Shown: piece after piece, positions 37,583 through 61,956 of the stretch
How the letters are laid out: each line of letters begins with the position of its first letter
Position numbering within the stretch: position 1 is the stretch's first letter
Source of the DNA: an uncultured Syntrophales bacterium
Lineage (GTDB): Bacteria > Desulfobacterota > Syntrophia > Syntrophales > JADFWA01
Direction: 5' to 3'
Assembly (NCBI GenBank): GCA_964652795.1
Contig: CAZZBF010000003.1
Span: 16,017-80,016 of the forward strand
Length of the DNA: 64,000 nucleotides
Translations under genes and position numbers: made by a program
The notes under the pieces: model-generated
Told to the model about the DNA's origin: nothing
Database searches by the model: none
The model's input: only the letters and a program-made list of their open reading frames with translations

Positions 37583-38635
37583 TTATATTACCCGGATTTT
37601 ACTTTTCGGTTCTGAGATTACCTCACCAACAATGGCTGCCTCCTCCATGCCTTCATCGTGCAACTTTTTGAGTAACTCATCTGCCTGATTTGGTGGTAAA
37701 GCAATTAATAGACCGCCGGCAGTTTGCGGATCAAAGAGAATATCCACCATCCAGTCGGGACAGTCGGTATCCTTCTTGATCATGTGCATGCGAAATTCCC
37801 TGTTTCTGTGCAAGCCTCCCGGCACTATCCCCATTTCTACTAATTCCCGGATTTCCCGGAAATAGGGAACGGAGGATGAATAGATAATCATTCCCACATC
37901 GCTTCCTTCTATCATCTCGCACGCATGACCGAGGAATCCGAAACCGGTTACATCCGTGCAAGCGTGAATATCGGCAAAATCCGCCATCAACTCTGCCGCC
38001 TTTTTATTTAAAGTGAGCATGCATTTTATCGATTGAGCCACCAGGTCATCATCGGCCATTTCCCCCTTCAAGGCTGTGTTTACAATCCCTGTTCCCAGAG
38101 ATTTGGTCAGGATGAGTTTGTCACCGGTCCTTGCGCCCCTGTTGAAAAGTACCTTGTCAGGGTGGATAATCCCGGTAACGGATAGCCCATACTTTAGCTC
38201 ATCATCTTCCACACTGTGTCCGCCGACCAGAACTACGTTCGCCTCCCGCATCTTATCCAGACCGCCGAGAAGAACCTGCTGGAGTATAAGAATATCCATC
38301 TTATTTATCGGAAAACATATTATATTCATGGCCGTAATCGGTTTTCCTCCCATGGCATAGACATCGGATAGTGAGTTTACCGCGGCAACCTGACCGAAAG
38401 TGTAAGGATCATCAACAATCGGAGTGAAAAAATCGAGTGTCTGAATAATGGCGAGGTCATCGCTCAGCTTATACACACCGGCATCCTCAGCGCTTTCCAT
38501 ACCCGCAATCAGGTTCGGATCGGACTGGAGTGGCAGTCCACGTAAAGCCTTGTCAAGGTCCCCCGGACCTATCTTGCAGGCTCACCCGGCACCATGTACC
38601 GTTTCCGTAAGACGTATTTTCGTTCTTTTATCCAT
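37583..38635 (-). CDS. selD: selenide, water dikinase SelD, selenocysteine-containing (UGA at 38582..38584)
   Basis: The track ORF 37583..38500 starts at an internal Met. The upstream in-frame reading is ATG 38635 MDKRTKIRLTETVHGAG-UGA-ACKIGPGDLDKAL..., and the UGA aligns with catalytic Cys17 of E. coli SelD (GAGCGCK). A hairpin lies downstream. Confidence 0.92.
38556..38584 (-). promoter_or_regulatory. SECIS element of selD
   Basis: UGA GCCUGCAAGAU AGGUCC-GGG-GGACCU, a 6-bp stem with the G-rich loop at nt 21-23 from the UGA. Confidence 0.8.
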
Positions 38636-39004: not shown

Positions 39005-39754
39005 TCACTTGATTTCACCAGACAGCAACGCCGCACCCAGAGCGCCCACCATTTGCGGGTCTTCGGGTACCATAATCTTTTGGTCGAGTACCTCTTCCAA
39101 CAGACAGCGCGCACATGGATTTCGTGCGACGCCCCCCGCAAAGATGATAGGTTCTTTAACAGAGACCCTCTTTAACATTCCTACGGCCCGGCTTACTACA
39201 GAACGGTGCAGACCCAGGGCGATGTCTCTCCGGTTAACTCCTTTGGCTACAAGTGAAGTGACTTCCGATTCCGCAAACACGGTACACATACTGCTTATCT
39301 GGACATCTTTGGTTGCCTGAAGTGCTTCAACACCAAACTGATCTAAACTAAAACCGAGGGTGTTCGCCATAATTTCCAAAAATTTTCCGGTCCCGGCCGC
39401 GCATCTGTCGTTCATCTCGAACTTGACGACTTTTCTCTCATTACTAACAGCAATGGCTTTGGAGTCCTGACCTCCGATATCCAGTATCGTCCTGACTTCA
39501 GGAAACAGAGACCTTGCGCCCACAGCATAGGCCTTGATTTCTGTGACCGTGGGTGTATTAAAGGCAAGTTCAAAGAGATGACGTCCATAACCGGTGGCCA
39601 TAATTCTGTCATACTGAACCCCTTCAAGGAGTTCTTTTGCCTGCGTCATCGGATCAAAGCCTGACTCTGCCCGCTTGCTTTCAATAATTCCTCTTTCGTT
39701 TAACACCACCAGTTCAATGGTTCGGGAACCGATGTCGATACCGGCGAGTCTCAT
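39005..39754 (-). CDS. HgdC/BcrAD-BadFG-type ATP-dependent [4Fe-4S] activase
   Basis: 249 aa with MRLAGIDIGSRTIELVV (ASKHA phosphate-1) and the cluster cysteines in NDRCAAGTGKFLE and SSMCTVFAESE. Confidence 0.88.
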   Translation of the reverse strand: MRLAGIDIGSRTIELVVLNERGIIESKRAESGFDPMTQAKELLEGVQYDRIMATGYGRHLFELAFNTPTVTEIKAYAVGARSLFPEVRTILDIGGQDSKAIAVSNERKVVKFEMNDRCAAGTGKFLEIMANTLGFSLDQFGVEALQATKDVQISSMCTVFAESEVTSLVAKGVNRRDIALGLHRSVVSRAVGMLKRVSVKEPIIFAGGVARNPCARCLLEEVLDQKIMVPEDPQMVGALGAALLSGEIK

Positions 39755-39799
39755 TCAGAAAACCTCCTCTATACTCGAAAGCCGTTTCTGTCGCATTAT

Positions 39800-40378
39800 C
39801 TAATATCCAGGTTTAATCACCCCTTTTATGGAGGTGACGGTCTTCTCGGGGAACAGAAGGCAACCATGACTAATTTTTAATCCAGGGATAGAATCCTTGA
39901 CCAGATCGAAAAATATCTGCTGTGCCTTAATCGAAAAATCGCCATACCCGGGGCTGAATCGGTGGGTGGTGGCAAATCCTTCTTCCTCGCACCGCCGGGA
40001 GATTTCCATGTCTGTCTTTTTCACCTCTTCTTCCACTATAAAACTCCCCAATCGGTCCAGTATGTATCCCTTAAAGACTTCATTTTCTCTAAAATATTCT
40101 CTGGATCTGCGATCTATATCTTCCCCCAGGGTTACCACGAGCAACCAGACTTTCTTTGCCTGTGCCAACAACTTAGTAATTGAGCTGCTTTGGCTGGCAT
40201 AAGGATAAAACAGTGTGAAAAACTCATCTATTGTTATGCATTTTCGCCACTCTTTGGTATTCAATAAGCCTGAGGATTCATCCAATATGTAAGAGATCTT
40301 TTCTATTATCTGCCTATTAACCGGAGCCCCAAGGTACTTAAGCAATCTTCGAGACACTGTAGTATCGTCTTTTACCAT
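39800..40378 (-). CDS. methionine-synthase (MetH) activation-domain-like protein
   Basis: ATG 40378 gives MVKDDTTVSRRLLKYLG. The C-terminal THRFSPGYGDFSI...PEKTVTSIKGV resembles the B12-dependent MetH reactivation (SAM-binding) domain. The track TTG 40429 start overlaps the upstream remnant. Confidence 0.65.
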   Translation of the reverse strand: MVKDDTTVSRRLLKYLGAPVNRQIIEKISYILDESSGLLNTKEWRKCITIDEFFTLFYPYASQSSSITKLLAQAKKVWLLVVTLGEDIDRRSREYFRENEVFKGYILDRLGSFIVEEEVKKTDMEISRRCEEEGFATTHRFSPGYGDFSIKAQQIFFDLVKDSIPGLKISHGCLLFPEKTVTSIKGVIKPGY

Positions 40379-40382
40379 TTGA

Positions 40383-40515
40383 TTATATGTTGACCTTTGA
40401 TTGTAAAAGAAGATTCTCAAACAGCCCAACTGCCTTTACCGCATCACGCGAATATGCATCTGCGCCGAAGAAACGAGAGACTGTATTATATCCAGCGGCT
40501 CTTCCAATTATAAGT
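40383..40515 (-). pseudogene. 3'-terminal remnant of a cobalamin-binding-domain gene
   Basis: The minus-strand frame reads KLIIGRAAGYNTVSRFFGADAYSRDAVKAVGLFENLLLQSKVNI*. It aligns to FIVGGAAVNSEVSRSIGADGYARDAVRAVNLVEKLLKQ at the C-terminus of ORF 41476..43104. There is no upstream continuation, because the EamA gene stop abuts it. Confidence 0.75.
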
Positions 40516-41361
40516 TTACACGCGTGACAGAAAAATGATAGCAACTGAGGCGATAACGATTGCTATTCCTTTTTCCCGAGTTAACTGTTCCATCCGCATT
40601 GAAGCGGCCAATCCTAAAGCAACCAAAAAACCCATGTTAGCAATGGGAATAACTACTGTAGCTTCACCATATTTAAGGGCAAGTGTCAGAAAAAGAGCGA
40701 TAAAAAAAATCATTATGCCTGATAACCCGGAATAAAGTGATGTCTTTACACTCAAATGTAAATTCTTTTCTATAAATGCAGCATAAAGTATACCTCCAAC
40801 AATCCAACAAACAGCGACAATCGCCAGCATTAATTGAGGATCTCCATGTTTCAATATACCTACCTTTGTGAGAACCCCATAACATGCTCTGGACAAGGAG
40901 GCCAATATAGCAACTCCAAAAAACATCATAAAATGATCTCTCTTGACCGGAAACATTAGTGGAGTTTCGCATAGAAATAAAACAGCTATGATTGCCAGCA
41001 GTATTCCCAATCCTTTTATGTATCCAATTGGTTCGCACAAGAAAAAAAATGATAAAATCACTACTCCAACAGTGTTTAGCCGATAGACAGTCGAACCAAG
41101 ACTGACATCGAGATGCTTTAGACTTTCCAACAAGAGAATATTGGATAGAAAAAGGATTATACCCGCAGAAAAGCCAAATTGAAGAGTAGGTATATTGTAT
41201 ACTATAGCATTATTGTTTACCAAAACGACTATTCCCTGAAGGCATATCCAGACCAAACCAATGCCGCAAATATACATGCCTCGAGAGCGGGGCTTAACAG
41301 AATACTTTTTAAAGATAAAGTCATTCAGCCCCGCAAATACCAAGCTAAGCAGTGCAAACAT
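40516..41361 (-). CDS. EamA/DMT-family transporter
   Basis: 281 aa with about 10 TM helices and a duplicated 5-TM architecture. Confidence 0.7.
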   Translation of the reverse strand: MFALLSLVFAGLNDFIFKKYSVKPRSRGMYICGIGLVWICLQGIVVLVNNNAIVYNIPTLQFGFSAGIILFLSNILLLESLKHLDVSLGSTVYRLNTVGVVILSFFFLCEPIGYIKGLGILLAIIAVLFLCETPLMFPVKRDHFMMFFGVAILASLSRACYGVLTKVGILKHGDPQLMLAIVAVCWIVGGILYAAFIEKNLHLSVKTSLYSGLSGIMIFFIALFLTLALKYGEATVVIPIANMGFLVALGLAASMRMEQLTREKGIAIVIASVAIIFLSRV

Positions 41362-41475
41362 AACGGCAGTTTTAATGGTAGAAACCTCTCTTTCTTTGCA
41401 AGAGTATTTTTAATTACTTTTTTCGAAAAATAGCCAAAAACTCTGCGGGGAAGAAGAACCCATCTATTTTGGCAT

Positions 41476-43104
41476 TTATGAAGAAATGTCGCCCCTTGGC
41501 TGTTTAAGGAGTTTTTCAACAAGGTTAACTGCCCTTACGGCATCACGGGCATATCCGTCGGCCCCAATAGATCGAGAAACCTCGCTATTTACGGCAGCTC
41601 CGCCAACTATAAAGAGGGGCTCTTTTATCCCCTCTTTATAAAATGAATTAATGACTCTTGCCATTTCTTTTCTTGAATCTGTTGTAAATGCGGAGAGGCC
41701 CATTATTGAAGGGCGGAATTTCTGATAAGCTTTTATGAATGCATCTTCAGCAATATCAACGCCCAAGTCAACCACATTGTGCCCATGTGTCTCAAGGAAT
41801 ATCCTCACAAGGTTCTTCCCTATTTCATGTATGTCGCCTTTTACCGTACCAATGAGAATGGTAGGCTTATTCGGCCCGTTGATTTCAAGTCTATGCTCCA
41901 GAATATGAAATCCCTCATAGAACGCATCGACCATGAGAAGGATAGACGGCAAAAAACACTTTTTGACCTCATACATGGCGCTACCCTTCCGAATAGCTCG
42001 CGTCAAGCCTTCGGTAACAATGTTTAACGGGTCAATACCGGCCTCGAGGCCCGCCGCCACTAAATTCTTTGTTACCTCGCGCTCACCCACATACACATTA
42101 TCGCTCATCTTTGACAGCAAAGAGATATGAGATTCCAGCCTATTAATAGACCTTCTGCCGGTTTCCACAAAAAGTCTGATATTTTCAATGGGGGCGGACG
42201 GCGGGACAGCGCAACCGGTGCTTAAAACGAAGTTATCCCTCATGCCCATCATGGAAACCAGATCCGAGGTCTGAGAAATAATATCATCCGCTGATCCAAG
42301 TTCAACAATCTCAACCGGATCAATATTTCCGATTATATAGACATCTTCGGGTATTTCGTCCTCCACCGCTAAAAGCTCCATACAGTTATCGAAGCTGATC
42401 CCGCGCACACCTGTTTTCACTATTTCCGGGACAATCCGATAGGTATCGCCACAAATATGAAGGATTGTTGGGATAGAGGTAAATAGCTCAAAAATCCTTT
42501 TCAAGAAACTGCCGGCAAAATTCCAAAACTGGTCGGGAGGAATCAGTGCGGCAAGGGGATCAGAAACCCATAACAAGTTTGCTCCTGACTCTACAAGGTA
42601 CAGAGCGTATCTTTTTGCGCATTCAAAGGTTTTTTCAAGGACAGCAAGGATTTCCTGTTGGTTTTCCGCAAGCCCTTTAAGTATACTCTCCTCACCTGCT
42701 ACCTGCCCGGCTACTGTGAATGGTCCGTAAAGCTGAGCTACTCTTAGCCTGTCAGGAAATTCCTTCTTCATCTCCTTCAGTACCTGCGCATTCACCTTCA
42801 TCCTGGGGACATTGGTCGGATGCGGAACACAAAAGACTTGAGGCGGAGATTGAACAGAGGGCATCCCTTCCCTGGAATACTTTATCGTGGCCCCCATAGC
42901 CTCTGCCTGAATGGCGATATCACCAAGGTAAAACAGGAGGTCGGAGTCAATCTTTTCATAGTACCGTCTTAAAGCTTCGAACTTTAAGTCCGCCCTCCAG
43001 AGAATGTCATCAATACCAGCGTCAACCATCTGACAAGAAGGCAGAGCATTAATTGGAAATATTAAGTGTCGCATAATAAAATTCCTTACGAGACTTTTCA
43101 ACAC
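41476..43104 (-). CDS. CmuA-like fusion: URO-D/MtaA-family methyltransferase plus cobalamin-binding domain
   Basis: 542 aa. The N-terminal ~340 aa are URO-D/MtaA-like. The C-terminal domain has the B12 motif GDIHEIGKNLV (DxHxxG) followed by GHNVVDLGVD and MGLSAF. The start may be the Met at MRHLIFP. Confidence 0.8.
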   Translation of the reverse strand: MLKSLVRNFIMRHLIFPINALPSCQMVDAGIDDILWRADLKFEALRRYYEKIDSDLLFYLGDIAIQAEAMGATIKYSREGMPSVQSPPQVFCVPHPTNVPRMKVNAQVLKEMKKEFPDRLRVAQLYGPFTVAGQVAGEESILKGLAENQQEILAVLEKTFECAKRYALYLVESGANLLWVSDPLAALIPPDQFWNFAGSFLKRIFELFTSIPTILHICGDTYRIVPEIVKTGVRGISFDNCMELLAVEDEIPEDVYIIGNIDPVEIVELGSADDIISQTSDLVSMMGMRDNFVLSTGCAVPPSAPIENIRLFVETGRRSINRLESHISLLSKMSDNVYVGEREVTKNLVAAGLEAGIDPLNIVTEGLTRAIRKGSAMYEVKKCFLPSILLMVDAFYEGFHILEHRLEINGPNKPTILIGTVKGDIHEIGKNLVRIFLETHGHNVVDLGVDIAEDAFIKAYQKFRPSIMGLSAFTTDSRKEMARVINSFYKEGIKEPLFIVGGAAVNSEVSRSIGADGYARDAVRAVNLVEKLLKQPRGDISS

Positions 43105-43281
43105 ATCAGTTTCGACGAAAATGTTAGTGTCTCAGGATACTTTTTGGGACAAAAAAGATCACCTCTGATCCTGGTTCTATCAAATAAATCTACTCCTTAA
43201 CTTCGCGCATACGTAATCGATAATGCTGACGGAAATGATGATCATAATTATCATGGTACAAACTTTTCGGTAATATTGTTT

Positions 43282-44010
43282 TTAAATCGCCGTCTTGAGG
43301 AGCAATAAAGTACCCATGATGAAAAGCAAGCCACAAATGAACTTATCAAACGTGCGGTCCTGAATCATTCTGAATACGTAAATGCCAAGGCCGATACCGA
43401 CCAGTATAAGCGGTGAAAAATAAAGATTCATGATTAGGATTCTTGATGTAAAAAGGCCCAAACATATGTACCATGATAAAAGGTACAGGTTTGTAAGCAG
43501 GAAAAATACCTGCAAATTTACTTTAAATATGAATTTGTTGTTATGCGTCCAGGTATTGTAAATAATGACTGGTGGTCCTGGCATGTAGACAGCTCCCCCT
43601 AGAATTCCAGAAAGAAATCCTGCCAGGCAGGACCAAGATTTTCTTTCTGCGGTAATTGAGGCCTTGTTGTTTAAGACAGACCAGAGTGAAAATGAAATTA
43701 AGATTGCTCCAACACCAAACTTAAGTACGGGATCACTCATGTTTGTGAGAAAGAATACACCAAGCAACGCTCCCGGCATGAATCCAATTATTTGAAGCAT
43801 GACTCTTTTTATTTTTATGTAGCTTCTGAGCTGTATAAGCAGTATCAAATTAATAGCCATATTATACGTGAGTATAAAAGGAACGGTTTCCTTGATAGAC
43901 CAGAAGAAAGACAAAAATGATATGGCTACTATAGCAAAGCCAAATCCGGAAAACCCCATTATCAGGCTCGAAAAAACTAATATAGCCCCGATCAGGACTG
44001 TGTTTTCCAT
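43282..44010 (-). CDS. TauE/SafE (TSUP) family anion exporter
   Basis: 242 aa with 7-8 TM helices and an internally duplicated Gly-rich architecture typical of TSUP proteins. It overlaps the ABC ATPase gene by 19 nt. Confidence 0.7.
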   Translation of the reverse strand: MENTVLIGAILVFSSLIMGFSGFGFAIVAISFLSFFWSIKETVPFILTYNMAINLILLIQLRSYIKIKRVMLQIIGFMPGALLGVFFLTNMSDPVLKFGVGAILISFSLWSVLNNKASITAERKSWSCLAGFLSGILGGAVYMPGPPVIIYNTWTHNNKFIFKVNLQVFFLLTNLYLLSWYICLGLFTSRILIMNLYFSPLILVGIGLGIYVFRMIQDRTFDKFICGLLFIMGTLLLLKTAI

Positions 44011-44753
44011 AAATCATCTTCCAACATACTATGAATTAGTGTGCAGTAATCTTTGAACTCCTTGCTCGTCCTAGCTCTCGGTCTCGATCCATCAATTTCA
44101 ATGACATCGTGAATTCTACCAGGCCTGCTTTTCATAACAACGATGCGATCAGCAAGGAAAACCGCCTCGCTGATACTGTGTGTGACAAATAAAACTGTCT
44201 TTCGCTCGGTTGCCCATATCCTGATCAATTCATTCTGCAAAAAATCTCTCGTCCGGGTATCTAACGCGCCAAATGGTTCGTCCATCAACAGGATTTTAGG
44301 ATTTACAGCCAAAGCCCTTATGATAGCCACCCTTTGCTGCATACCGCCGGAAAGTTCATAAGGGTAAGCATCGGCATAATCAGCGAGTCCCACCATTTCG
44401 AGATATTTTTTTGCTGTTTCTGTCCTTTTTCTCTTGCTGATATTTTTTACCTCAAGTCCGATGGTTACGTTCTCCAGTACGCTCCTCCAGGGAAACAGAG
44501 TATATTCCTGAAAAACAACGCCTCTTTCAGGGCTGGGGCCGTTAATCTCATTTCCCTCTAAAACAATTTTTCCTTCTGTCGGCACCTCAAGGCCTGAAAT
44601 TAGCTTTAGAGTTGTAGTTTTTCCACATCCCGATGCTCCTACGATACAGACAAATTCACTCTCATCTACATCCAGATTCACATTATTTATGGCCTGAAAT
44701 TTTTCTCCGTTTGTTTTTTTAAATGTTTTCGTGACGTTGATTATATCTAACAT
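43992..44753 (-). CDS. ABC transporter ATP-binding protein (NitT/TauT family, TauB/SsuB-like)
   Basis: 253 aa with GASGCGKTT, LSGGMQQR and LLMDEPFGALD. Confidence 0.9.
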   Translation of the reverse strand: MLDIINVTKTFKKTNGEKFQAINNVNLDVDESEFVCIVGASGCGKTTTLKLISGLEVPTEGKIVLEGNEINGPSPERGVVFQEYTLFPWRSVLENVTIGLEVKNISKRKRTETAKKYLEMVGLADYADAYPYELSGGMQQRVAIIRALAVNPKILLMDEPFGALDTRTRDFLQNELIRIWATERKTVLFVTHSISEAVFLADRIVVMKSRPGRIHDVIEIDGSRPRARTSKEFKDYCTLIHSMLEDDLWKTQS

Positions 44754-44756
44754 GGC

Positions 44757-45593
44757 CTATTTCATCCTGCTGACCCAGGCAAATCGTTGCCTCTCTACAT
44801 GCCTGAAAAACCAATCCATAATAAATCCGATGAATCCAATAACAATCATGCCGGCCACAATTATCTCGGTGCGAAGAAGTTCATAGGCATACCATATAAG
44901 ATAACCGAGGCCTGCATTGCTGCCCGGCATCATCTCTGCCGCTACAAGGCACATCCATCCTATCCCCATTCCGATCCGTAGACCTGTTACTATCGAGGGA
45001 AGGCTGGCAGGGATAATTACCTTTAAAAGTAGTGAAAAGCCTCTTAAACCGAGGGTCCTTGCAGATTCAATATAAATTTTAGGGATGCTTTTGGCTCCGT
45101 GAATAGTATTGAGTAAAATGGGGAAAAAGGCGCCGATCAGTATGATGATAATCATAGAAAACTGAACGCCTCCAAAGAGCACACTACTACTCAGTTCCGG
45201 GAAACAATCGGAAAGGCCTTTTATCCCGAACCATGATAGAATCAAAGGAACCCAGGCCAGCGGGGGGATTGGCCTTAAGGATTCAATCAATGACGCAAAA
45301 AACCTTTCAGCCAATCTATAATAACCCATCAATATCCCCAGAGGAACAGCCAAAACAACGGCCAGAAAAAAACCACACATTACCCTGACAAGACTTATGC
45401 CCATATTTTCAATAAGGCTTCCGGTTATCAGAATCTTTGTGCCTGGATGTGCCAGGACTTTTCCCACCGCCTCCAATCTTGGAAGAACCATTGGCTTATC
45501 AATGTGAATAGCCAGCATCTGCCATATGAACGCCAATAAAAAAGGGAGTAAGAGGTGGGAAAATACCTTTTCTAAAACTTGTTCTTTATTCAC
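44757..45593 (-). CDS. ABC transporter permease (TauC/SsuC-like)
   Basis: 278 aa with 6 TM helices and an EAA-type loop (ESARTLGLRGFSLLLKVIIP). Confidence 0.88.
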   Translation of the reverse strand: MNKEQVLEKVFSHLLLPFLLAFIWQMLAIHIDKPMVLPRLEAVGKVLAHPGTKILITGSLIENMGISLVRVMCGFFLAVVLAVPLGILMGYYRLAERFFASLIESLRPIPPLAWVPLILSWFGIKGLSDCFPELSSSVLFGGVQFSMIIIILIGAFFPILLNTIHGAKSIPKIYIESARTLGLRGFSLLLKVIIPASLPSIVTGLRIGMGIGWMCLVAAEMMPGSNAGLGYLIWYAYELLRTEIIVAGMIVIGFIGFIMDWFFRHVERQRFAWVSRMK

Positions 45594-46773
45594 TAATGAA
45601 TTTCTTCTTTCTCAAATCCTTTTTCGCTGCATCCATATATCGAAAATCGAAGAGAAGAGGAACCAGTTCCTTATCCCGTTTTCCCCGTAACTTTTTGCTG
45701 ACGATGTTCATGCCGTCCATTATTTTTACATATGTGTAAACGCTATTCTTCCACTCTTGTGTAGGTGTTGTAGTGTAGGTGAGGGTGGGCATCGCCACTT
45801 TTTCTACTGATTCTTCAACACCGAGCCAGGATGAACAGGTTCTTGCAGTCATTTCTTTATCCCCATTGGCCGCGTTCACCCCGAGTAAAATCAATTCCAT
45901 CATCTTACCCAGCAGATCCCTGTCCCTTTCTTCAAACCCTTCGGTTGCCTCAAGGGAGCAGCAGGCATGTCCATACCACCTATTGCTGGGAGGAACGTCC
46001 TGTAGATTAAGAATCAATTTGCCCAAACCCCTGTTTATGGTAACCGATGGGAAGGGTTGGGCTCCAATGATGCCTTCTGTTATTCTGTTTGCCAATGCAG
46101 AAATAAGATTTCCATGTCCTTTCATGTTAATGAAGAGGATATCCGATTTATTATCTGTGCTGTCTTCCGTATAGGTAATACCTTCATAATCAAGGGCAGA
46201 TCTGAAAATAATGGTTGCCACACAATGAGGTCCCGGCATTCCAATCTTGAACTGTCTTTTGCTCCCTTTGATTTCATTTACGAAATCACTCCAGCTGTTC
46301 ATAGGGAGCTCCTTCTTGAGTACGAATACATTACCCGCGGTCTGAAGGGGAGATATGATCTTTGTCTTTACTCCTTTATCTATCGACATAATGATGCCCT
46401 GTGTGCCGCTGATTCCCATATCCACACTTCCTTGGGCCACGAGTTTGTCAAGATCAGGTCCCTTTTTTGTGGGGATAAGTTTAACTCTAGATATCTTTGA
46501 GCCTTCATAAAAGAAATCATACAACTTATACTCCTGTACCGGTTTAAGATAGGTTTTGTATTTTCCCTGGAAAAATTCCCAGTCCTTTGCAAGAACCATT
46601 AATGGTGCATGATGGTCGGATAATATATAGCCAAAATTAATTGTGGATTCTTTGGCATACGCCATTTTTGCGATAAAACCCGGAGCCAGCCCAGCCAGTG
46701 CGGTTCCGGCAGCTAAAGTTCCACTTTTCTTTAAAAAGTCTCTCCTTGTTAGATCTTTTTCATGCTTGTTCAT
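45586..46773 (-). CDS. Tat-signal periplasmic substrate-binding protein (NMT1/SsuA/TauA-like)
   Basis: The likely start is ATG 46773 (AAGGAG upstream), giving MNKHEKDLTRRDFLKKSGTLAAGTALAGL (twin-arginine motif). At about 395 aa it is longer than typical SsuA/TauA. The track start is 46818. Confidence 0.75.
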   Translation of the reverse strand: MNKHEKDLTRRDFLKKSGTLAAGTALAGLAPGFIAKMAYAKESTINFGYILSDHHAPLMVLAKDWEFFQGKYKTYLKPVQEYKLYDFFYEGSKISRVKLIPTKKGPDLDKLVAQGSVDMGISGTQGIIMSIDKGVKTKIISPLQTAGNVFVLKKELPMNSWSDFVNEIKGSKRQFKIGMPGPHCVATIIFRSALDYEGITYTEDSTDNKSDILFINMKGHGNLISALANRITEGIIGAQPFPSVTINRGLGKLILNLQDVPPSNRWYGHACCSLEATEGFEERDRDLLGKMMELILLGVNAANGDKEMTARTCSSWLGVEESVEKVAMPTLTYTTTPTQEWKNSVYTYVKIMDGMNIVSKKLRGKRDKELVPLLFDFRYMDAAKKDLRKKKFISE

Positions 46774-46814
46774 CTCTCCATTCTCCTTATCTTTAATTTG
46801 TAGAAATTTCATAT

Positions 46815-47966
46815 TCAATGTAACATCTCCAAGAACGCCTCTATCCTTGTCTTTAATTGTCCCGTGTCCGAGGAGGAATAATCTGTCTCAATTTGTAGCA
46901 GTGGTATTTGATGCTCTTTCTCCAGAAATTCTTTGATAAGGTAGGATTCTACATTGTAGGTATGGCAGCAGTGCCAAGTTAGATCAACTACGCCCTGAAT
47001 CTTGAAGTCTTTAACAAGCCGGCCTAAAAGATTGATCCGGTCCTGATTGGGCGTCATACACGAGCAGGGAATTTTCAAATAACGGCTTGCGATGGATCTG
47101 TAAGGATCACCATCTTCATTTACAAGCAGATCAAAACTCTTTATACCTGTGCAATTCTCCTGGCAGACCACAACACCCCCGCATTCCTCGATCAACCGCA
47201 GAACCTTTTCCGAACCTTTTCCTATCGGACAACCGGTAAGAAGAATCCTTGGTACTTCGAGACTGCATACCGATTCCCCTTTCCTTTTTATGACCTCAAG
47301 CTCATAGGCAAGTTCCCGTAAGGCATTTAAATAGTTTTCGGGCTCAACGGAAAAATTCTTCGATTCCATCACCAGCATCATATCGAGGCCTGAAATAGGT
47401 ACGGGATACTCCGTGCAAAAGCTGACAATTTTCTTTAATAACATTCTTTTATTATTGTGAAGTTTGATCTGATGTCTTAACTCTTTTTCGGATATCCTTG
47501 TGCCTGTCTGAATCTCCAAAAAATCTTTAAGCCTTGCAATCTCTTCAATCCAGTAATTCAGGGAACGATCCCCGTCCGATGTGGGCGGCAGATGCATAAG
47601 AAACAACGGCTTAATTCTTTCCAATAGTTCAAACATCTTCTTCTTGCCGTCACAGGTGGTCTCCCCGATAATAAAATCGGAGAACCCAAAGTAGTTGCAT
47701 GTATTTGTAATGGCATACCCGAAGCTCGATTTGATCAGTGGGCAAAGATTGGCGGGAAGCACGGTTTCCGCGTCGCTAAGAGGGCTCTGATTCTTTCCGC
47801 AGAGACCCACAGGGATAGCTCCGGATGCACGAACCAGCTCTTTTGGAGCAAAGACACAGTACAGGCCAACAATCTTTATCCCTGCTTTCTTCATCTTTTC
47901 ACATTCAAGTTGGCTGTTTTCTCTTAAATGTTCAAACAGAGACATGCTTTCCGGTCTCAATGCCAA
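46815..47966 (-). CDS. HgdB/BcrB-family (2-hydroxyacyl-CoA dehydratase D-component-like) Cys-rich protein, paralogue B
   Basis: 383 aa. It aligns along its length with ORF 47980..49257 and shares nine Cys positions with it (GLYCVF, GLCG, NLCPLIKS, TCNYF, GETTCDGKKK, TGCPIG, ENCTG, PCSCMTPNQDR, HCCHTY). Confidence 0.8.
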   Translation of the reverse strand: MALRPESMSLFEHLRENSQLECEKMKKAGIKIVGLYCVFAPKELVRASGAIPVGLCGKNQSPLSDAETVLPANLCPLIKSSFGYAITNTCNYFGFSDFIIGETTCDGKKKMFELLERIKPLFLMHLPPTSDGDRSLNYWIEEIARLKDFLEIQTGTRISEKELRHQIKLHNNKRMLLKKIVSFCTEYPVPISGLDMMLVMESKNFSVEPENYLNALRELAYELEVIKRKGESVCSLEVPRILLTGCPIGKGSEKVLRLIEECGGVVVCQENCTGIKSFDLLVNEDGDPYRSIASRYLKIPCSCMTPNQDRINLLGRLVKDFKIQGVVDLTWHCCHTYNVESYLIKEFLEKEHQIPLLQIETDYSSSDTGQLKTRIEAFLEMLH

Positions 47967-47979
47967 TTTCCTTTACCTC

Positions 47980-49257
47980 CTACTTAATCAATTCTATGAA
48001 AGCCTCCACTCTTGTTCTGAGCTGTCCCACATCTTCCATGCTGTAGTCCGTATCAATACGAAGTGTTGGAATACTTTTTGCCTCGAGGGCCTTTTCCACC
48101 GGCATGGACTCCATAAGATAGGGCTGACAGAATTGCAGACCGTAATGGATGACGCCGTCCGCCTGATATTTTTCAGCCATCTCGACAATATGATCAAGAC
48201 GATCCGGATTTGGCGTGAAGATGGCGCAATCTACCTTGAAATAGCGGTCAACGATGGCCTCCATAAGTTCATCCACGGTATTACCGGAACCATCGGTAAG
48301 GTTGCGTGTGCCCCGCTCTCCCACGCATGACTCCTCTCCCACAATAACAGCACCGGCGGTTTCTATAATCCAGGGGAGCTTCCAGTTGGGAACGGCCATG
48401 GGGCAGCCGGATATTAAGATTCTTGGAGCTGATTCCGGGATGACGCCTTCTTTTTTTTCGATACGAGTCTCCAGTTCGTCGCAGATGTTATTAACCGAGT
48501 CGGTAAAACGCACGGGATCATCATAGAAAAAAACCTGGTTGGCTAAAAGCGCGTCCAGCCCTGAGATTGGGGCCGGGTTTGCCTTTCTCAGATATGAAAG
48601 CCTGTGAATGGCCTTTCGCTTGTTGTTGACGATCTCAATGCCTTTCTTGAGTCTGTCCGTGTCAATGGTTATGCCCGTAAGTTTTTCAACAGCCTCCTTG
48701 AAGCGCAGATATTCCGCTTTTAAAAGAGCCCTTCCTTCAGCAGATTTCACCTGCGGCAGGTCCATAACATAGAGGTTAGGGACGAGATCACTCAGTGTCT
48801 CGTAGGACTTTTTCTTGCCGTCGCAGGTATTCTCTCCCACAATCATGTCTGCGGATTCAAGATAGGGGCATACTTTCCCCAATTTGAATCCGAAGGCCGA
48901 CTTGATAAGGGAGCAGGTATTGCGGGGAAGGAGCTTTTCCACTTCTTCCATCGCAAAGTCGGCCCCTGTACAAAGACCAACCAGTGTAGCATCGGCAGCT
49001 CTCACGATTTCTTCCGGCACGAAGACGCAGAAGGAACCGATTACCTTCCGCCCGCTCGCCTTTTCGTTCATTAATTCTTTGATCCGCAGGCCGTGAACTT
49101 CGCTCATGACAAAATCAAAATATCCCATGCCCTCCGGCCGCTTCTTCTGGGCGAGATAAATATTCTGATAACCTTTACCAAGAACCTCCAGCAGGGCATC
49201 GTGCGCTGCGAGATCAAGTCCTAATGTTTCCCACATACTCTTGTAATCCTCGCTCAT
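47980..49257 (-). CDS. HgdA/BcrC-family (2-hydroxyacyl-CoA dehydratase D-component-like) Cys-rich protein, paralogue A
   Basis: 425 aa with motifs GSFCVF, GLCTG, NTCSLIKS, VCPYL, GENTCDGKKK, SGCPMA, ESCVG, DCAIFTPNPDR and FCQPY. It ends with the family-typical RIDTDYS...GQLRTRVEAF. Confidence 0.8.
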   Translation of the reverse strand: MSEDYKSMWETLGLDLAAHDALLEVLGKGYQNIYLAQKKRPEGMGYFDFVMSEVHGLRIKELMNEKASGRKVIGSFCVFVPEEIVRAADATLVGLCTGADFAMEEVEKLLPRNTCSLIKSAFGFKLGKVCPYLESADMIVGENTCDGKKKSYETLSDLVPNLYVMDLPQVKSAEGRALLKAEYLRFKEAVEKLTGITIDTDRLKKGIEIVNNKRKAIHRLSYLRKANPAPISGLDALLANQVFFYDDPVRFTDSVNNICDELETRIEKKEGVIPESAPRILISGCPMAVPNWKLPWIIETAGAVIVGEESCVGERGTRNLTDGSGNTVDELMEAIVDRYFKVDCAIFTPNPDRLDHIVEMAEKYQADGVIHYGLQFCQPYLMESMPVEKALEAKSIPTLRIDTDYSMEDVGQLRTRVEAFIELIK

Positions 49258-49626
49258 CTTTTTCCTCCTGTAAGTTTTTATTTAATAATCCCGCATACCT
49301 TTCCGCCCAAGGGTGAATTCAACAGCGTGATTCGGTCCTGACATGGAATTTCTTTTGCCATGTCAAGGTTTCCGTCAAAGCAGTTGAATACAATCCTGTT
49401 GCCTCTTCAGCTTACTGTAATGGTCTTTAACTACTCTATTCTTTTGAGATCGAAGACCGACTCAAAGAAAGACATACGAGCCAGACCGAAAAGATTTGAA
49501 AACTGGTGATTAAAAATGAAGGGAAGAAATTTGAGTTTCCAGTTTGGCCCTGTACCTACCGAACCCAGGTAGAATTTCGATCGTAGCTCAGGTAAAGCCG
49601 AAAAATTTATACATGACCAAACTCCT
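49258..49626 (-). repeat. 5' region of the HgdA-like gene, copy 1 of a duplicated ~370-bp segment
   Basis: It aligns base-for-base with 63482..63855. By eye the identity is roughly 85 percent in the distal 250 nt and lower near the ATG. Confidence 0.85.
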
Positions 49627-49951
49627 GTTAATATAGTTTTATATGACTACCTAAGTTTAAGGAATATGTCAAATTCATAATAGTTATAGTTTTTTGCTAA
49701 TTATAATTGAAATTTATGATAATTAAGTTATTTATGAGTTGTAATCAATGACGACCAAAGATTGTTCCCTTGACATAGCCGGTAGCTACGAACTGGATTT
49801 GTGGGAACGAATCAGATCGGAAAAAGAGGTAACCATGCTCGAATTATCAGATATTAGATAAAGGCTAAATACGATTAACAACCTATTTCCCCGTTATTGC
49901 GGGCTTTGAAATTTTTTGGGTTCCCAGGCCAATTAAAAGACTTTGTAGCTG

Positions 49952-51244
49952 TTAAAAGCTATATCGAATAGCCGTATAGATATTCGTATTATTCTCAAAT
50001 TGACCCCAAAAAGTATGAGACTCTTCTCCTGAAAAAATATTTGCTCCTGTTACTAATGTTATTTTGTCGGTGTACTTGTAACGTATGTTCGGACGAAGAT
50101 AGGCATCCCTGTCACTGGGCGAATAATACGACGAGAGGGATAATTCCAGATTCTGATTCATCAGCAATTTCGTTAATTGTAGCGTTATGACATGCCTGTC
50201 ATGATCCCGGGCCGGACCGCCGGATAGGTGTGTCATGTAATTACTATAATCCAGCATATACTCAATATAATATTGCAGGCTTGCGTTGAAGTCTCGTGCG
50301 AGATCCTGCGTATAACCTACTAGGTACCGCATTTCCGAGTTATTGACCAACGGGTTTGAACCGCTTTCGTCATCGACAGATTGATAATATGCATATTCGA
50401 TATTTCCGATCCCCGGACCGATCTGTCCCCTGGCGCTGAAACCGTAAACATTCAGATCGGGGAATATGTCCACGCCCGATGGTGTCTGGCCGCCGGGCCG
50501 TTTCCAGAACCCATGATAACCATATAAGGCCAATTCGTAGTTGCTGATATTTTGATAGATACGAACGGCAATCTCTTCATCCCGGAACCAGTGATCCGGT
50601 CTGTCGGCGGTGACAATCGCATCCCGGCCGGCACATCTTCCCAGCCGGTCATTCCAATATGAAACATATTCACCGGTGATGTACCTGTCCGCGTCAAACC
50701 GTGGCGTATAGACCACGTCAATATTGATCGGACCCGCAAAAAGACTTACTTTTGCGGCATCGGACGGGGCCTTAAGATACTCCTTGTCTCGTCCGATAAA
50801 ATATGACTGCCAGTCCTTGGGGAACATATCGTTGAGGAAAACAAGATCCCCCGTTCCCCAAGTCAGGACCTGGCGACCGATTTTGATATCCATAAAATCA
50901 AACGGCCGTGAGAACATCCAGGCCTCACGGGTGTCATATTTGCCTTCTTCGGTTACGCCGTCACCCCACACGTCCCCCTTGTACTTGAACTCCGCCCAAT
51001 CGGTGTAGGTGAAGAGTTCGGCCTGCAACCGGACCTCCATTACGGAAGCGTCTTTTTCATACGGGTCATTCTGCATACGGCAGCCCGCCCGTAGCTCAAG
51101 GAAACCATGTATCTCAAGAGGCGGAAGCTGATCCAAAAAAGGATTTTTATAGGCTTCCGCAGCGTGAACCGGAGGGACGGGGAACATCAGGACAATGAAC
51201 AGTGTTAACAGAAATAATTTGCCGGGATTTAAAAGAACTTTCAT
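49952..51244 (-). CDS. outer-membrane beta-barrel protein (unknown family)
   Basis: 430 aa with the signal peptide LFLLTLFIVLMFPVPPVHA. It has alternating-pattern beta-strand-like sequence rich in Tyr/Gly/Asp and a C-terminal AIRYSF ending in Phe. Confidence 0.65.
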   Translation of the reverse strand: MKVLLNPGKLFLLTLFIVLMFPVPPVHAAEAYKNPFLDQLPPLEIHGFLELRAGCRMQNDPYEKDASVMEVRLQAELFTYTDWAEFKYKGDVWGDGVTEEGKYDTREAWMFSRPFDFMDIKIGRQVLTWGTGDLVFLNDMFPKDWQSYFIGRDKEYLKAPSDAAKVSLFAGPINIDVVYTPRFDADRYITGEYVSYWNDRLGRCAGRDAIVTADRPDHWFRDEEIAVRIYQNISNYELALYGYHGFWKRPGGQTPSGVDIFPDLNVYGFSARGQIGPGIGNIEYAYYQSVDDESGSNPLVNNSEMRYLVGYTQDLARDFNASLQYYIEYMLDYSNYMTHLSGGPARDHDRHVITLQLTKLLMNQNLELSLSSYYSPSDRDAYLRPNIRYKYTDKITLVTGANIFSGEESHTFWGQFENNTNIYTAIRYSF

Positions 51245-52074: not shown

Positions 52075-52075
52075 T

Positions 52076-61495: not shown

Positions 61496-61506
61496 TCTTC
61501 CCTCCG

Positions 61507-61541: not shown

Positions 61542-61613
61542 TTCTATTGTTTCTTCCCGCCCTTGGGTTCAGAAGCATCCCTTGCCTCAGGCTGCTATAC
61601 AAATTAAAATATT

Positions 61614-61943: not shown

Positions 61944-61956
61944 GTCATTCCTCCTG

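Follow-up and report, generated by a model that had tools for sequence, protein, structure and literature searches.

A conserved array of double-cubane cluster protein, ABC importer and corrinoid methyltransferase genes as a possible selenium-acquisition module of a Desulfobacterota-type bacterium

Described systems and layout of the array

Double-cubane cluster proteins (DCCPs) cannot be reduced by dithionite but need ATP, and residues C115 and C152 of the partner protein DCCP-R serve as its cluster ligands (PMC9351452). Proteins of family NF040772 were found in SelD-encoding genomes in 955 of 970 cases (Haft and Gwadz, 10.1101/2022.07.06.499078), and DCCP-containing clusters of MtaA-like corrinoid methyltransferases were linked to methyl-selenide use, an association with MarHDK being assigned to a non-selenium, methyl-sulfur clade (Kountz and Balskus, 2023 preprint, PMC10418091). 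Selenide is a substrate of ClMlp2 (Km, 80 µM; PMC10418091), and in Methanococcus dimethylselenide is used via the Sdm corrinoid system (PMC11097638).

In the window, i.e., the entire 64,000-nucleotide stretch analyzed here, an earlier note made from the sequence alone had described an array of ten genes on the minus strand. All ten ORFs were confirmed in position, strand, and family; profile-HMM searches recovered the claimed families, except that the MetH-activation-like ORF (P9) had no Pfam hit and was assigned via PDB entry 1J6R. The features are as follows:

37583..38635, minus strand: selD, Sec-containing selenide-water dikinase, translated through the UGA at 38582-38584 (motif HGAGUACK)
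39005..39754, minus strand: activase, ASKHA [4Fe-4S] ATPase ("archerase") of the HgdC/DCCP-R type (BcrAD_BadFG, TIGR00241)
39800..40378, minus strand: P9, stand-alone MetH-activation-domain homologue, 192 aa (family profile against PDB 1J6R; ORF listed as 39800-40429)
40516..41361, minus strand: EamA-family transporter (Pfam EamA)
41476..43104, minus strand: MtaA/CmuA-type Zn methyltransferase fused to a corrinoid-binding domain (URO-D, B12-binding_2, B12-binding; probable ATG start 43074)
43282..44010, minus strand: TauE/SafE-family membrane protein (Pfam TauE, E = 5e-22)
43992..44753, minus strand: ABC ATPase (ABC_tran)
44757..45593, minus strand: ABC permease with Cys215 in the motif GWMCLVAAEMM (BPD_transp_1)
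45586..46773, minus strand: Tat-signal substrate-binding protein of NitT/TauT (NMT1/SsuA) fold, 395 aa (NMT1_2, TIGR01409; ORF listed as 45586-46818)
46815..47966, minus strand: DCCP_B, shorter double-cubane paralogue (NF040772, PDB 7YYL; probable ATG start 47945)
47980..49257, minus strand: DCCP_A, full-length double-cubane paralogue, 425 aa (NF040772, PDB 7YYL/6ENO)
49258..49951, minus strand: 694-nt untranslated leader upstream of DCCP_A

Gaps and overlaps match the earlier description: several junctions abut or overlap, three gaps measure 114 to 177 nt, the latter being the largest with the ORF-list starts, and no intergenic gap holds a terminator-like site. As had been claimed, profile searches found no CoA-transferase, acyl-CoA dehydrogenase, or benzoyl-CoA gene within or beside the array. 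Genes for a RamA/RACE protein, a methyl acceptor, and a methyl-H4folate methyltransferase are all missing from the array itself. Unlike the Sao proteins, the array proteins include no selenoprotein in any locus. The leader is ~90% identical to that of the closest relative (locus L087) except for three large indels; an Rfam search gave nothing, even at E ≤ 1, and the folding z-score was -1.8.

Proteins of the array

Both HGD-D paralogues (Pfam HGD-D, E about 1e-122) exceed the 350-bit cutoff of NCBIfam NF040772 ("double_cubane"), with 471 bits for DCCP_A and 506 bits for DCCP_B. DCCP_A matches the solved DCCP (7YYL/6ENO) over residues 4-425 (E = 1e-142); DCCP_B, which lacks the N-terminal ~40 aa, matches 7YYL at E = 5e-89. 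A classical 2-hydroxyacyl-CoA dehydratase or benzoyl-CoA reductase was rejected, the Had and Bcr models reaching only 15-128 bits against cutoffs of 420-750, so that the double-cubane type favored in the earlier note holds. The nine aligned Cys residues reported for the two paralogues (36% identity) are real, eight of them being common to the solved DCCP in the alignment. DCCP_A carries a 7-Cys motif, and its Cys residues are invariant in six orthologues; the nine of DCCP_B are invariant in 14. In most related arrays, DCCP_B is the copy directly upstream of the binding-protein gene. The activase scored 230 bits with TIGR00241, and its Cys118 and Cys157 align with the two DCCP-R cluster ligands in 7YYL. 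On these matches, the paralogues are [8Fe-9S]-type double-cubane reductases and the activase their ATP-hydrolyzing [4Fe-4S] electron donor.

The binding protein probably starts at 46773, from where it is 100% identical to database protein P0154; its twin-arginine signal scored 22.2 bits with TIGR01409 (cutoff, 16.7 bits). The motifs SDHH, MKGH, and H-A-C-C-S are invariant; specifically, H54, H55, H220, H269, C271, and C272 are retained in all of 31 homologues and C313 in at least 90%. The top Foldseek matches of its AlphaFold model (pLDDT, 88) were SsuA/TauA/NrtA/Thi5 at no more than 16% identity, its SsuA_fam score was 27 bits against a cutoff of 163, and the invariant His/Cys-Cys set appears unlike known sulfonate binders. 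The permease reached 145 bits with TauC (cutoff, 342), its best NCBIfam match being SaoP (NF040733; 187 bits, cutoff 295), and the ATPase scored best with SaoA (267 bits, cutoff 360; TauB, 246 bits). These scores give no support to a TauABC/SsuABC identity; the importer can be placed at the level of the NitT/TauT superfamily only, with SaoP and SaoA, both below cutoff, as its closest named relatives. Permease Cys215 is invariant across all orthologous permeases, is missing from a second ABC type of related loci, and probably lies at the transport gate; its equivalence to the Sec gate of SaoP is one of position only.

TauE is a recurrent yet optional member: it lies between the ATPase and methyltransferase genes, at 45-50% identity, in L011, L012, L013, L084, L098, L100, L104, and L109 and is absent from L087. 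EamA has no counterpart in any related locus, L087 included, and is an insertion peculiar to the window.

In the methyltransferase, His216, Cys218, and Cys298 as well as the DxHxxG motif (D424xH426xxG429) are invariant among 22 homologues, and a profile search of the PDB recovered MtaA (4AY7) and corrinoid proteins (1Y80/7XCN). The three Zn ligands are of the thiol/selenol type, a His-Cys-Cys site that does not tell S from Se. The P9 family, with a conserved RxSPGYGDF motif, matches 1J6R, the stand-alone MetH activation protein of Thermotoga, at E = 5e-16, which bears out the "MetH-activation-like" label. P9 always lies immediately 3' of the fused methyltransferase, and the pair occurs in 11 of 12 orthologous genome loci.

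Conservation and selenium genes in the neighborhood

The gene order DCCP, binding protein, permease, ATPase, (TauE), methyltransferase, P9, (activase) recurs, at 45-90% identity, in about 20 independent Desulfobacterota contigs, so that co-location is far beyond chance, and the functional unit proposed in the earlier note is borne out. Full or near-full arrays are present in L001/L088, L087, L090, L098, L100, L103, L104, L109, and Desulfatibacillum alkenivorans (L084). Of 24 distinct loci whose upstream sequence is available, about 21 carry a DCCP gene next to that of the binding protein; of 18 that extend far enough downstream, 17 have the methyltransferase gene beside those of the ABC importer. 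The two halves also occur apart, a DCCP_B-ABC module being found without the methyltransferase in L110 and the methyltransferase-P9 pair without DCCP in L085 and L096; consequently, the two chemistries may not share one substrate. In a Desulfosarcina MAG (L003/L007), paralogous methyltransferase-P9 pairs adjoin nitrogenase-like NifHDK genes.

That the genes are accidental neighbors or separate operons is very improbable and already contradicted by this synteny, together with the overlapping junctions and the lack of terminator-like sites, even though three gaps exceed 100 nt, selD is set off by 369 nt, and the right half is mosaic relative to L087, with TauE and EamA as indels and only 68% identity of the methyltransferase.

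The selD gene, absent from the earlier note, lies 369 nt downstream of the array on the same strand (TIGR00476, 391 bits, cutoff 125; NF002098, 353 bits, cutoff 299); its in-frame UGA (Sec18) shortens the mechanical ORF call. Given this separation, selD may have its own promoter; the contig of L087 ends before the corresponding position. Further selenium genes, all above their NCBIfam cutoffs, flank the orthologous arrays: yedF (TIGR03527, 216 bits) abuts DCCP_A in L001/L088, yedE (TIGR04112, 476-482 bits) is found in L103 and L104, and selB (TIGR00475, 303 bits) lies upstream in L096/L108, along with a gene for a C-GCAxxG-C-C (seleno)protein. Such neighbors occur in 5 of about 15 independent long loci against a chance expectation of roughly 2% per 20 kb (rough binomial p about 1e-5 by our own estimate, which assumes about six selenium genes per 5-Mb genome). 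About two-thirds of the related loci (L084, L085, L011-13, L109, L110) have no selenium gene within 10 kb.

Possible functions of the array

This repeated adjacency to selenium-metabolism genes suggests that what is scavenged is a selenium compound and not a sulfonate; we infer this to be the most likely substrate and tentatively propose, at a probability of roughly 45%, that the array serves an anaerobic Desulfobacterota-type bacterium in acquiring (salvaging) selenium. Selenium in reduced or methylated form, e.g., as methylselenol, dimethyl(di)selenide, or a selenenyl-sulfide adduct, would be bound in the periplasm and then transported into the cell, possibly via Se-S exchange on Cys residues. 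The activase would then energize DCCP_B, and DCCP_A where present, for a very low-potential reduction of the imported compound, with C-Se cleavage, Se-Se cleavage, and conversion of Se(0)-level selenium to selenide (calculated E0' near -0.7 V) as candidates. The fused methyltransferase would move the methyl group of CH3-Se- onto Co(I) and from there to a thiol; a single MtaA-type domain could suffice for both half-reactions, as in MtsA. Oxidized Co(II) would be repaired by P9 through SAM-dependent reductive methylation, a role that RamA/RACE fills in other corrinoid systems. Selenide would pass to SelD, and TauE and EamA would be accessory carriers, e.g., for a methylated by-product. Counting against this reading are the loci lacking nearby selenium genes, the distance to selD, a Zn site that suits S as well as Se, the lack of selenoproteins among the array proteins and of a gene for a methyl acceptor or a methyl-H4folate methyltransferase, and the separate occurrence of the two halves.

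Import of a methylated thiol, thioether, or sulfonate (dimethyl sulfide, methanethiol, methylmercaptopropionate, or a methyl-coenzyme M-like compound), with corrinoid demethylation for carbon or energy and C-S cleavage by DCCP as in nitrogenase-like MarBHDK, is a doubtful though serious alternative. It would suit the MtaA/MtsA-like methyltransferase with its thiol-type Zn site, the superfamily of the importer, the recurrence of TauE, and the many loci devoid of nearby selenium genes, and the NifHDK neighbors in L003/L007 echo the MarHDK association of the non-selenium clade. Sulfonate uptake as suggested in the earlier note is, however, not supported, given the importer scores, the His/Cys-Cys set, the permease Cys, and the selD/yedF/yedE/selB flanks; moreover, a catabolic route would want the missing methyl-H4folate methyltransferase. 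Sulfide is presumably abundant in sulfate reducers, making sulfur scavenging needless, and with selenium scarce, an ATP-costly organosulfur scavenger would make little sense.

Handling of organometals or metalloids, as proposed for the SAO locus, is unlikely. Soft metal(loid) species (Hg, As, Sb, or Te compounds) would enter through a Cys-lined importer, be methylated or demethylated by the corrinoid enzyme, and be reduced by DCCP. SaoP and SaoA are indeed the best named matches, CC motifs are rare in binding proteins and were read as metal ligands by Haft and Gwadz (10.1101/2022.07.06.499078), DCCPs often flank SAO loci, and the HgcAB corrinoid proteins methylate Hg. Yet the scores fall below the Sao cutoffs, SaoL (MerB-like), SaoE, SaoC, SaoT, SaoD, SaoB, and SaoX were all undetected among the array proteins, no mer or ars genes were found nearby, and the neighbors serve selenium assimilation, not resistance.

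Quite unlikely, too, is that DCCP and activase merely supply ATP-driven reductant for Co(II) to Co(I) in place of RamA/RACE and reduce no substrate. The absence of RamA/RACE, the very low potential of the Co(II)/Co(I) couple, and gene adjacency would fit, but P9 already provides a repair route and always accompanies the methyltransferase, each partner occurs without the other (L085, L096, L110), and DCCPs mostly occur in genomes and loci lacking corrinoid proteins.

For the preferred reading, selenium acquisition, the logic of binding-protein-dependent import, corrinoid methyl transfer, and ATP-driven low-potential reduction set out in the earlier note is supported by the identity of the parts. 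Its statement that no such pathway had been described stands for the exact gene composition, of which no description was found in the literature, but not for the selenium link of DCCPs and MtaA-like corrinoid methyltransferase clusters, already drawn in the two preprints of Haft and Gwadz (2022) and Kountz and Balskus (2023).

Layout of the array and its genomic surroundings

The minus strand between positions 39005 and 49257 carries ten ORFs, and the ORF list together with Pfam and NCBIfam searches bears out both the gene order and the family assignments that had been proposed from the sequence in the earlier note. These genes, in order of transcription, and two further regions of the window are the following.

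Features of the array and of two further regions (basis of the assignment in brackets)
47980-49257 and 46815-47966, minus: two HGD-D proteins, DCCP_A and DCCP_B (Pfam/NCBIfam)
array, minus: NMT1_2 binding protein with Tat signal, SBP (Pfam/NCBIfam)
array, minus: BPD_transp_1 permease and ABC ATPase (Pfam)
array, minus: TauE-family protein (Pfam)
41476-43104, minus: URO-D, B12-binding_2, and B12-binding fusion, the methyltransferase (Pfam)
array, minus: EamA transporter (Pfam)
39800-40378, minus: P9, 192 residues, without family match (Pfam/NCBIfam)
39005-39754, minus: BcrAD_BadFG/TIGR00241 activase (Pfam/NCBIfam)
55869-63210, minus: HydE, HydG-like radical SAM protein, HydF, aspartate ammonia-lyase, and group A [FeFe]-hydrogenase
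3564-5613, start of the window: multihaem cytochrome c and cytochrome b

With the starts of the ORF list, the gaps within the array do not exceed 177 nt and several genes overlap. The true starts likely make three ORFs shorter; identical database proteins set the start of the SBP at 46773 (P0154) and that of P9 at 40378 (P0121), and the methyltransferase probably starts at 43074. The remaining window is occupied by chromosomal housekeeping genes (ATP synthase, tpiA, gltX, glyA, riboflavin genes, trkAH, leuS, and lptE), and the hydrogenase region and the cytochromes fit an anaerobic, Desulfobacterota-like host. The LptE and LolA-like genes, along with the taxonomic placement of the relatives, point to a Gram-negative organism of this kind.

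Upstream of the array, on the same strand (49952-54784), a trio of genes encodes a 430-residue protein without family match, a LolA-like/DUF1329 protein, and, as its third product, an RND transporter of the MMPL/HAE3 type; a MarR regulator gene (54840-55316) precedes the trio. The closest relative of the array, locus L087, features three ORFs that correspond in length and order, in a region that is 85% identical in DNA. The 694-nt leader 5' of DCCP_A (49258-49951) is approximately 90% identical to that of L087 except for three large indels, and it contains a mini-ORF with a ribosome binding site (MYKFFGFT, about 49590-49616). Rfam yielded no match to this leader at E values of up to 1, its fold is not distinctive (z = -1.8), and at Rfam gathering thresholds the window showed no riboswitch, whether for cobalamin or of another type.

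Double-cubane proteins, corrinoid methyltransferase, and importer

At the sequence level, both HGD-D proteins belong to the double-cubane family NF040772, with scores of 471 and 506 bits at a curated cutoff of 350. The 425-residue DCCP_A matches the solved DCCP of Carboxydothermus (6ENO/7YYL) over its full length (E = 1e-142), and the 383-residue DCCP_B, in which the N-terminal approximately 40 residues are missing, matches it with E = 5e-89. DCCP_A and DCCP_B are 36% identical to each other and have nine Cys in aligned positions, eight of which are also present in the solved DCCP; all three proteins contain the published 7-Cys motif of Haft and Gwadz (spacing tolerance ±1), and the Cys of the array DCCPs are invariant among the orthologues of other contigs. 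The models for dehydratases (HadB/HadC) and for Bcr/Bzd proteins gave 15 to 128 bits with cutoffs of 420 to 750, and according to the window annotation neither the array nor its flanks contain a CoA-transferase, acyl-CoA dehydrogenase, or benzoyl-CoA gene. The subcutoff scores and the lack of the first two of these genes rule out a classical 2-hydroxyacyl-CoA dehydratase or class I benzoyl-CoA reductase. The earlier note had thus counted the nine Cys exactly, had correctly reported the absence of CoA-related genes, and had rightly regarded a classical 2-hydroxyacyl-CoA or aryl-CoA role as unsupported; its impression that the pair was reminiscent of double-cubane reductases can, on the family score, the DCCP match, and the Cys motif, be extended to predicted family membership.

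The activase, an ATPase of the ASKHA type (TIGR00241, 230 bits), aligns about equally well with DCCP-R, HgdC, and MbdQ, and its residues C118 and C157 take the positions of C115 and C152 in chain E of 7YYL; in DCCP-R, the Cys pair bridges a [4Fe-4S] cluster (PMC9351452). Apart from this pair, the family, and the eight common Cys including the 7-Cys motif, all shared with the array, the DCCP/DCCP-R system of Carboxydothermus hydrogenoformans differs in two respects. The solved DCCP is a homodimer of one gene product, whereas the array encodes two paralogues, one of them shorter, so that a DCCP_A/DCCP_B heterodimer is possible; and the array DCCPs, unlike those of Carboxydothermus, are encoded together with an importer and a corrinoid enzyme.

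The fused methyltransferase consists of an MtaA/CmuA-like barrel and a C-terminal half comprising a cap and a Rossmann corrinoid domain. Since it reaches 129 bits with TIGR01463, the cutoff of which is 235, it is to be considered a relative rather than a member of this family; its nearest solved relative is MtaA 4AY7 (PDB profile match, E = 2e-29). Matches to both PF02310 and PF02607, along with the DxHxxG motif, identify a cobalamin-binding domain with the hallmarks of base-off/His-on binding. Across 22 homologues, with identities down to 41%, D424-x-H426-x-x-G429 is invariant, and so are His216, Cys218, and Cys298; a His-Cys-Cys zinc site has been associated with S- or Se-methyltransferases by Kountz and Balskus (PMC10418091). 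CmuA, of the MtaA/CmuA family, which acts on chloromethane, likewise carries a fused corrinoid domain in the same domain order, and the same family includes MtsA and MtsD/F/H of Methanosarcina, which act on methyl sulfides, work with a corrinoid domain, and possess a thiol-type Zn site. In MtsA, both half-reactions are carried out by one domain, which sets a precedent. From CmuA and the Mts proteins, the array enzyme differs in its subcutoff TIGR01463 score, in the lack of a CmuB-type or H4folate partner, and in its genomic context.

P9 is named "hypothetical" wherever it is named and contains no Pfam or NCBIfam domain; PF02965 (Met_synt_B12) did not match the window protein and matched one of the 19 family members at E = 0.011. 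A profile of these 19 members matches PDB entry 1J6R, i.e., TM0269 of Thermotoga, with E = 5e-16 over 120 residues, which supports the "MetH activation" label originally given to P9 as a putative remote homology. The motif RxSPGYGDF is invariant in the family. Pfam and NCBIfam searches revealed no RamA/RACE-type corrinoid activase in the array. In the split methionine synthase of Thermotoga maritima (TM0268 and TM0269), the SAM-dependent reactivation domain is also a stand-alone protein, encoded right after its corrinoid enzyme; unlike in Thermotoga, the partner of P9 is not MetH and has neither a folate-binding nor an Hcy-binding domain.

For the importer, the curated sulfonate models all scored below their cutoffs (TauC, 145 versus 342 bits; SsuC, 122 versus 347; TauB, 246 versus 357; SsuA_fam, 27 versus 163.5), which rules out a TauABC/SsuABC-type sulfonate importer. 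The TauABC-like system first proposed for these genes therefore has the superfamily fold, and nothing further, in common with them. The best named matches of the permease and the ATPase were SaoP (187 versus 295 bits) and SaoA (267 versus 360 bits), both again below cutoff.

The SBP family comprises 86 proteins at identities of at least 46%, nearly all from Desulfobacterota-type sources. In 31 members, S52-D-H-H55, M217-K-G-H220, H269-A-C271-C272-S, and the first Arg of the twin-arginine motif are invariant, and the second Arg and C313 are conserved to at least 90%. Since Tat-type signals are also present among NrtA/CmpA-type members of this fold, the signal by itself would be unremarkable. 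The AlphaFold model of the SBP (pLDDT of 88) displays the type II binding-protein fold of SsuA, TauA, NrtA, and Thi5, and a Foldseek search with this model returned generic NitT/TauT-fold binders alone, which point to no particular ligand; identity to solved proteins does not exceed 16%. By predicted secondary structure, the invariant His and Cys residues follow strand 1, lie at the N terminus of a lobe-2 helix, and lie on a crossing strand; they would sit where ligands usually bind in the type II fold.

Cys215 of the permease (GWMCLVAAEMM) is invariant in every orthologue, and a second ABC type of related loci has Gly or Ala at this position. Judged by the distance from the C terminus alone, Cys215 would correspond to Sec210 of SaoP, a selenocysteine that Haft and Gwadz (preprint) placed at the SaoP gate. 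Among the array proteins of all loci, no in-frame UGA aligned to a Cys was found; the sole Sec/Cys swap concerns the SelD of a related locus, L025. The second ABC module, in which the permease lacks the Cys and is joined by an ATPase and an SsuA-family SBP of approximately 330 residues with a weak SaoX match (42 bits), is often located 5' of the methyltransferase-P9 pair (loci L005, L008, L009, L010, L013, and L085), at times together with the Cys-lined type.

Conservation of the array and adjacency to selenium genes

Related loci were collected in two scans, one anchored on a methyltransferase alignment with one genome per species, in which the matches listed were mostly distant corrinoid proteins, and one anchored on an SBP alignment with metagenome contigs, which was the better anchor. 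Individual contigs were also fetched, and genes were labelled with the proteins of the window as tblastn/blastp queries. Many loci show the order DCCP_A-DCCP_B-SBP-permease-ATPase-(TauE)-methyltransferase-P9-activase. Far from never being co-located elsewhere, the genes therefore form a unit, as had been supposed.

Loci related to the array
L087: closest relative, array order present
L001 = L004 = L088: Guaymas Basin Deltaproteobacteria MAG, array order present
L090, L098, and L100: array order present
L011, L012, and L013: Desulfocapsaceae and relatives, array order present
L104: every array gene of the window but EamA
L103 and L109: complete but rearranged array
L084: cultured Desulfatibacillum alkenivorans DSM 16219, DCCP_B-SBP-permease-ATPase-TauE-methyltransferase

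Among the matches listed, a DCCP gene adjoins the SBP gene in approximately 21 of 24 distinct loci with upstream sequence (in one, L107, as a pseudogene), the methyltransferase adjoins the ABC genes in 17 of the 18 loci whose downstream sequence is long enough, and the methyltransferase-P9 pair is found in 11 of 12 orthologous genome loci; TauE is an optional, recurrent member, and EamA occurs in the window alone. Two submodules are separable, with DCCP_B-ABC lacking the methyltransferase in L110 (Desulfarculaceae MAG) and ABC-methyltransferase-P9 lacking DCCP in L085 and L096/L108. Identity in DNA between the window and L087 is 88% from DCCP_A through the ATPase and 71 to 73% for the methyltransferase, P9, and the activase. 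Because of this drop and because TauE and EamA are missing in L087, the right half of the array is mosaic, suggesting that it was swapped by recombination.

Individual loci showed further peculiarities. In L107, DCCP_B 5' of the SBP (8685-9389) contains several in-frame stops, with importer, methyltransferase, and P9 intact. L108, where selB is linked to the array, encodes a CMD/AhpD-like protein and a MIP-family channel after P9 (15041-16205). In L006 (Desulfosarcina MAG, 4798-8856), methyltransferase-P9 is divergent from a HadB/HadC- or BCR-like HGD-D pair, which scores below the DCCP cutoff, with two activases; a peroxiredoxin gene is also present.

A selD gene, missed in the earlier note, lies on the same strand 369 nt downstream of the array, and the flanking selenium gene differs between orthologous arrays.

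Selenium genes flanking the arrays (score versus cutoff in bits)
37583-38635, minus: selD of the window, UGA at 38582-38584 for Sec at residue 18
L001/L088, abutting DCCP_A: YedF (TIGR03527, 216 versus 110)
L103 and L104, after the array: YedE (TIGR04112, 476-482 versus 200)
L096/L108, 5' of the array: SelB (TIGR00475, 303 versus 242)

ORF calling truncates selD to a 305-residue AIRS-family ORF; read through the UGA, it encodes 350 residues starting MDKRTKIRLTETVHGAG-U-ACK. With the SelD motif HGAG-U-ACK and 391 bits for TIGR00476 (cutoff of 125; Cys put for Sec), it is assigned to this family. The UGA is followed by a hairpin whose stability, as that of a SECIS candidate, is not statistically unusual. 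A 156-residue HAD/P-type-ATPase-like fragment (37112-37582) abuts selD with zero gap. In L103, a small TusA-like gene follows YedE; in L104, a formate dehydrogenase alpha subunit is encoded upstream; and in L096/L108, a DsbC-like protein and a C-GCAxxG-C-C (seleno)protein also precede the array. In total, selenium genes occur at 5 of approximately 15 independent long loci. The chance level is approximately 2% per 20-kb window, assuming about six such genes per 5 Mb, and our own rough binomial estimate is approximately 1e-5.

According to Haft and Gwadz (10.1101/2022.07.06.499078), 955 of 970 strong NF040772 proteins occur in SelD-encoding assemblies, and DCCPs cluster with the selenoprotein-rich SAO (selenocysteine-assisted organometallic) locus. 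HGD-D and activase genes are STRING partners of YedE/YedF (Lin et al.), and "mlp" clusters (MtaA-like) contain DCCP and sel genes, methylcobalamin demethylation by one Mlp being dependent on selenide (Kountz and Balskus, PMC10418091). Methanococcus acquires selenium from dimethylselenide via the corrinoid Sdm system (Niess and Klein 2004, as cited in PMC11097638).

A possible selenium pathway and its relation to known systems

What the array consists of, that it is conserved as a unit, and that selenium genes repeatedly adjoin it are observations; as their interpretation we favor, with a probability of roughly 0.45, a selenium-acquisition pathway, of which we infer the substrate and the DCCP reaction. 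Reduced or methylated Se species would be caught in the periplasm and imported, perhaps via Se-S exchange on Cys. DCCP, energised by its ATPase, would catalyze a low-potential reductive step, either C-Se or Se-Se cleavage, in parallel to C-S cleavage by MarBHDK, or the conversion of Se(0)-level selenium to HSe-, for which the calculated E0' near -0.7 V at pH 7 would explain why an electron donor driven by ATP is needed. CH3-Se- would be demethylated by the Zn/corrinoid enzyme and the methyl group passed to a thiol, a single MtaA-type domain serving both half-reactions as in MtsA; P9 would repair Co(II) via SAM-dependent reductive methylation; selenide would be delivered to SelD; and TauE and EamA may export by-products. 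A more specific version is a high-affinity Se uptake and release pathway in which Se is relayed covalently over the Cys of SBP and permease, with DCCP as physiological "selenium reductase" (C-Se/Se-Se cleavage or Se(0) to selenide); we regard this version as doubtful. If true, it would explain why DCCPs are nearly confined to SelD-encoding genomes, and the family would gain its first natural substrate.

MarBHDK, the nitrogenase-like methylthio-alkane reductase, uses ATP to drive the low-potential cleavage of C-S bonds alongside methyl-sulfur metabolism; its likeness to the array is a functional analogy alone, since the protein families are unrelated, and the window contains no Nif-like gene. 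In L003/L007 (Desulfosarcina MAG, 10001-21000), genes for a TonB-dependent receptor, an unassigned trio of nitrogenase-like NifH/D/K proteins, and a BtuFCD-like ABC system come after a paralogous methyltransferase-P9 pair, and in Clostridioides difficile (L066/L067) distant unfused methyltransferase relatives lie near NifHDK-like genes. From these arrangements, it seems that ATP-driven reductases of two different kinds can serve as partners of corrinoid S/Se-methyltransferases.

The paralogous pair beside nitrogenase-like genes in L003/L007 speaks for methyl-sulfur or sulfonate catabolism, the function originally envisaged, as do the ambiguity of the Zn site between S and Se and the many loci without selenium neighbors. 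For a sulfide producer, ATP-costly sulfur scavenging seems pointless and selenium is scarce and poorly available, an argument that is purely ecological; altogether, we consider methyl-sulfur or sulfonate catabolism rather unlikely. The SAO locus resembles the array in its SsuA-fold SBP with a CC motif, a Cys/Sec-type permease residue that in the array would lie near the gate, adjacent DCCP genes, and its occurrence in SelD-positive anaerobes. It differs in that the Sao scores of the array are below cutoff, no array protein contains Sec, and a corrinoid methyltransferase, which SAO lacks, is present; SaoL, SaoE, SaoC, SaoT, SaoD, and SaoB were not matched by any array protein in NCBIfam. Membership in the SAO locus is ruled out by the subcutoff SaoP/SaoA scores, the absence of seven of nine families, and the lack of Sec, and an SAO-like handling of organometals or organometalloids is improbable. 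Still less probable, given that the modules can be separated and that P9 is present, is that DCCP serves as the reductive activator of the corrinoid. Finally, a mere juxtaposition of genes that recur together in so many loci is extremely improbable.

Type 1 mlp clusters (PMC10418091) and the Sdm dimethylselenide system of Methanococcus (as cited in PMC11097638) share with the array a His-Cys-Cys MtaA-like methyltransferase, a corrinoid carrier, and an association with DCCP and selenium genes; methyl-selenide demethylation is the proposed function. By definition, type 1 clusters encode at least the Mlp2 and Mlp3 methyltransferases, a separate corrinoid protein, and a RamA/RACE activase (PMC10418091). 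Whereas they comprise two or three separate Mlps besides the corrinoid protein, the array combines one methyltransferase domain with the corrinoid domain in a fusion protein and has a putative MetH-activation-domain protein in place of RamA/RACE as well as a dedicated ABC importer; mlp hosts are mainly Firmicutes, array hosts Desulfobacterota. The single fused methyltransferase and the lack of RamA/RACE rule out a type 1 mlp cluster.

Judged by sequence, DCCP and SelD are thus family members, and the MtaA/CmuA, SaoP/SaoA, and MetH-activation counterparts are relatives but not members. A literature search yielded no published description of this gene composition, and to this extent the earlier statement that no such pathway had been described stands; it requires correction in that two preprints already tie DCCPs and corrinoid S/Se-methyltransferase clusters to selenium, which makes the array a variant within a known theme. 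What is new in this Desulfobacterota form is the added Cys-lined importer, dedicated to the system, and a predicted MetH-type repair protein in place of the corrinoid activase.

The natural function of DCCP has been open since its discovery and was stated as unknown in the 2022 structure paper (PMC9351452), and the selenium supply of anaerobes with large selenoproteomes in sulfidic sediments is poorly understood. The array joins a DCCP pair directly to a specific importer and a corrinoid methyltransferase of the selenol/thiol type, with selD, yedE, yedF, or selB as recurrent neighbors, and in this way it turns the statistical correlation of DCCP with SelD into a concrete, testable pathway. It also presents a corrinoid methyltransferase with a MetH-type activation protein, rather than RamA/RACE, as its predicted repair system, and a Sao-like Cys-lined ABC importer without selenocysteine. 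With Desulfatibacillum alkenivorans as a cultured carrier and three purifiable components with screenable ligands, the function of DCCP becomes directly testable.
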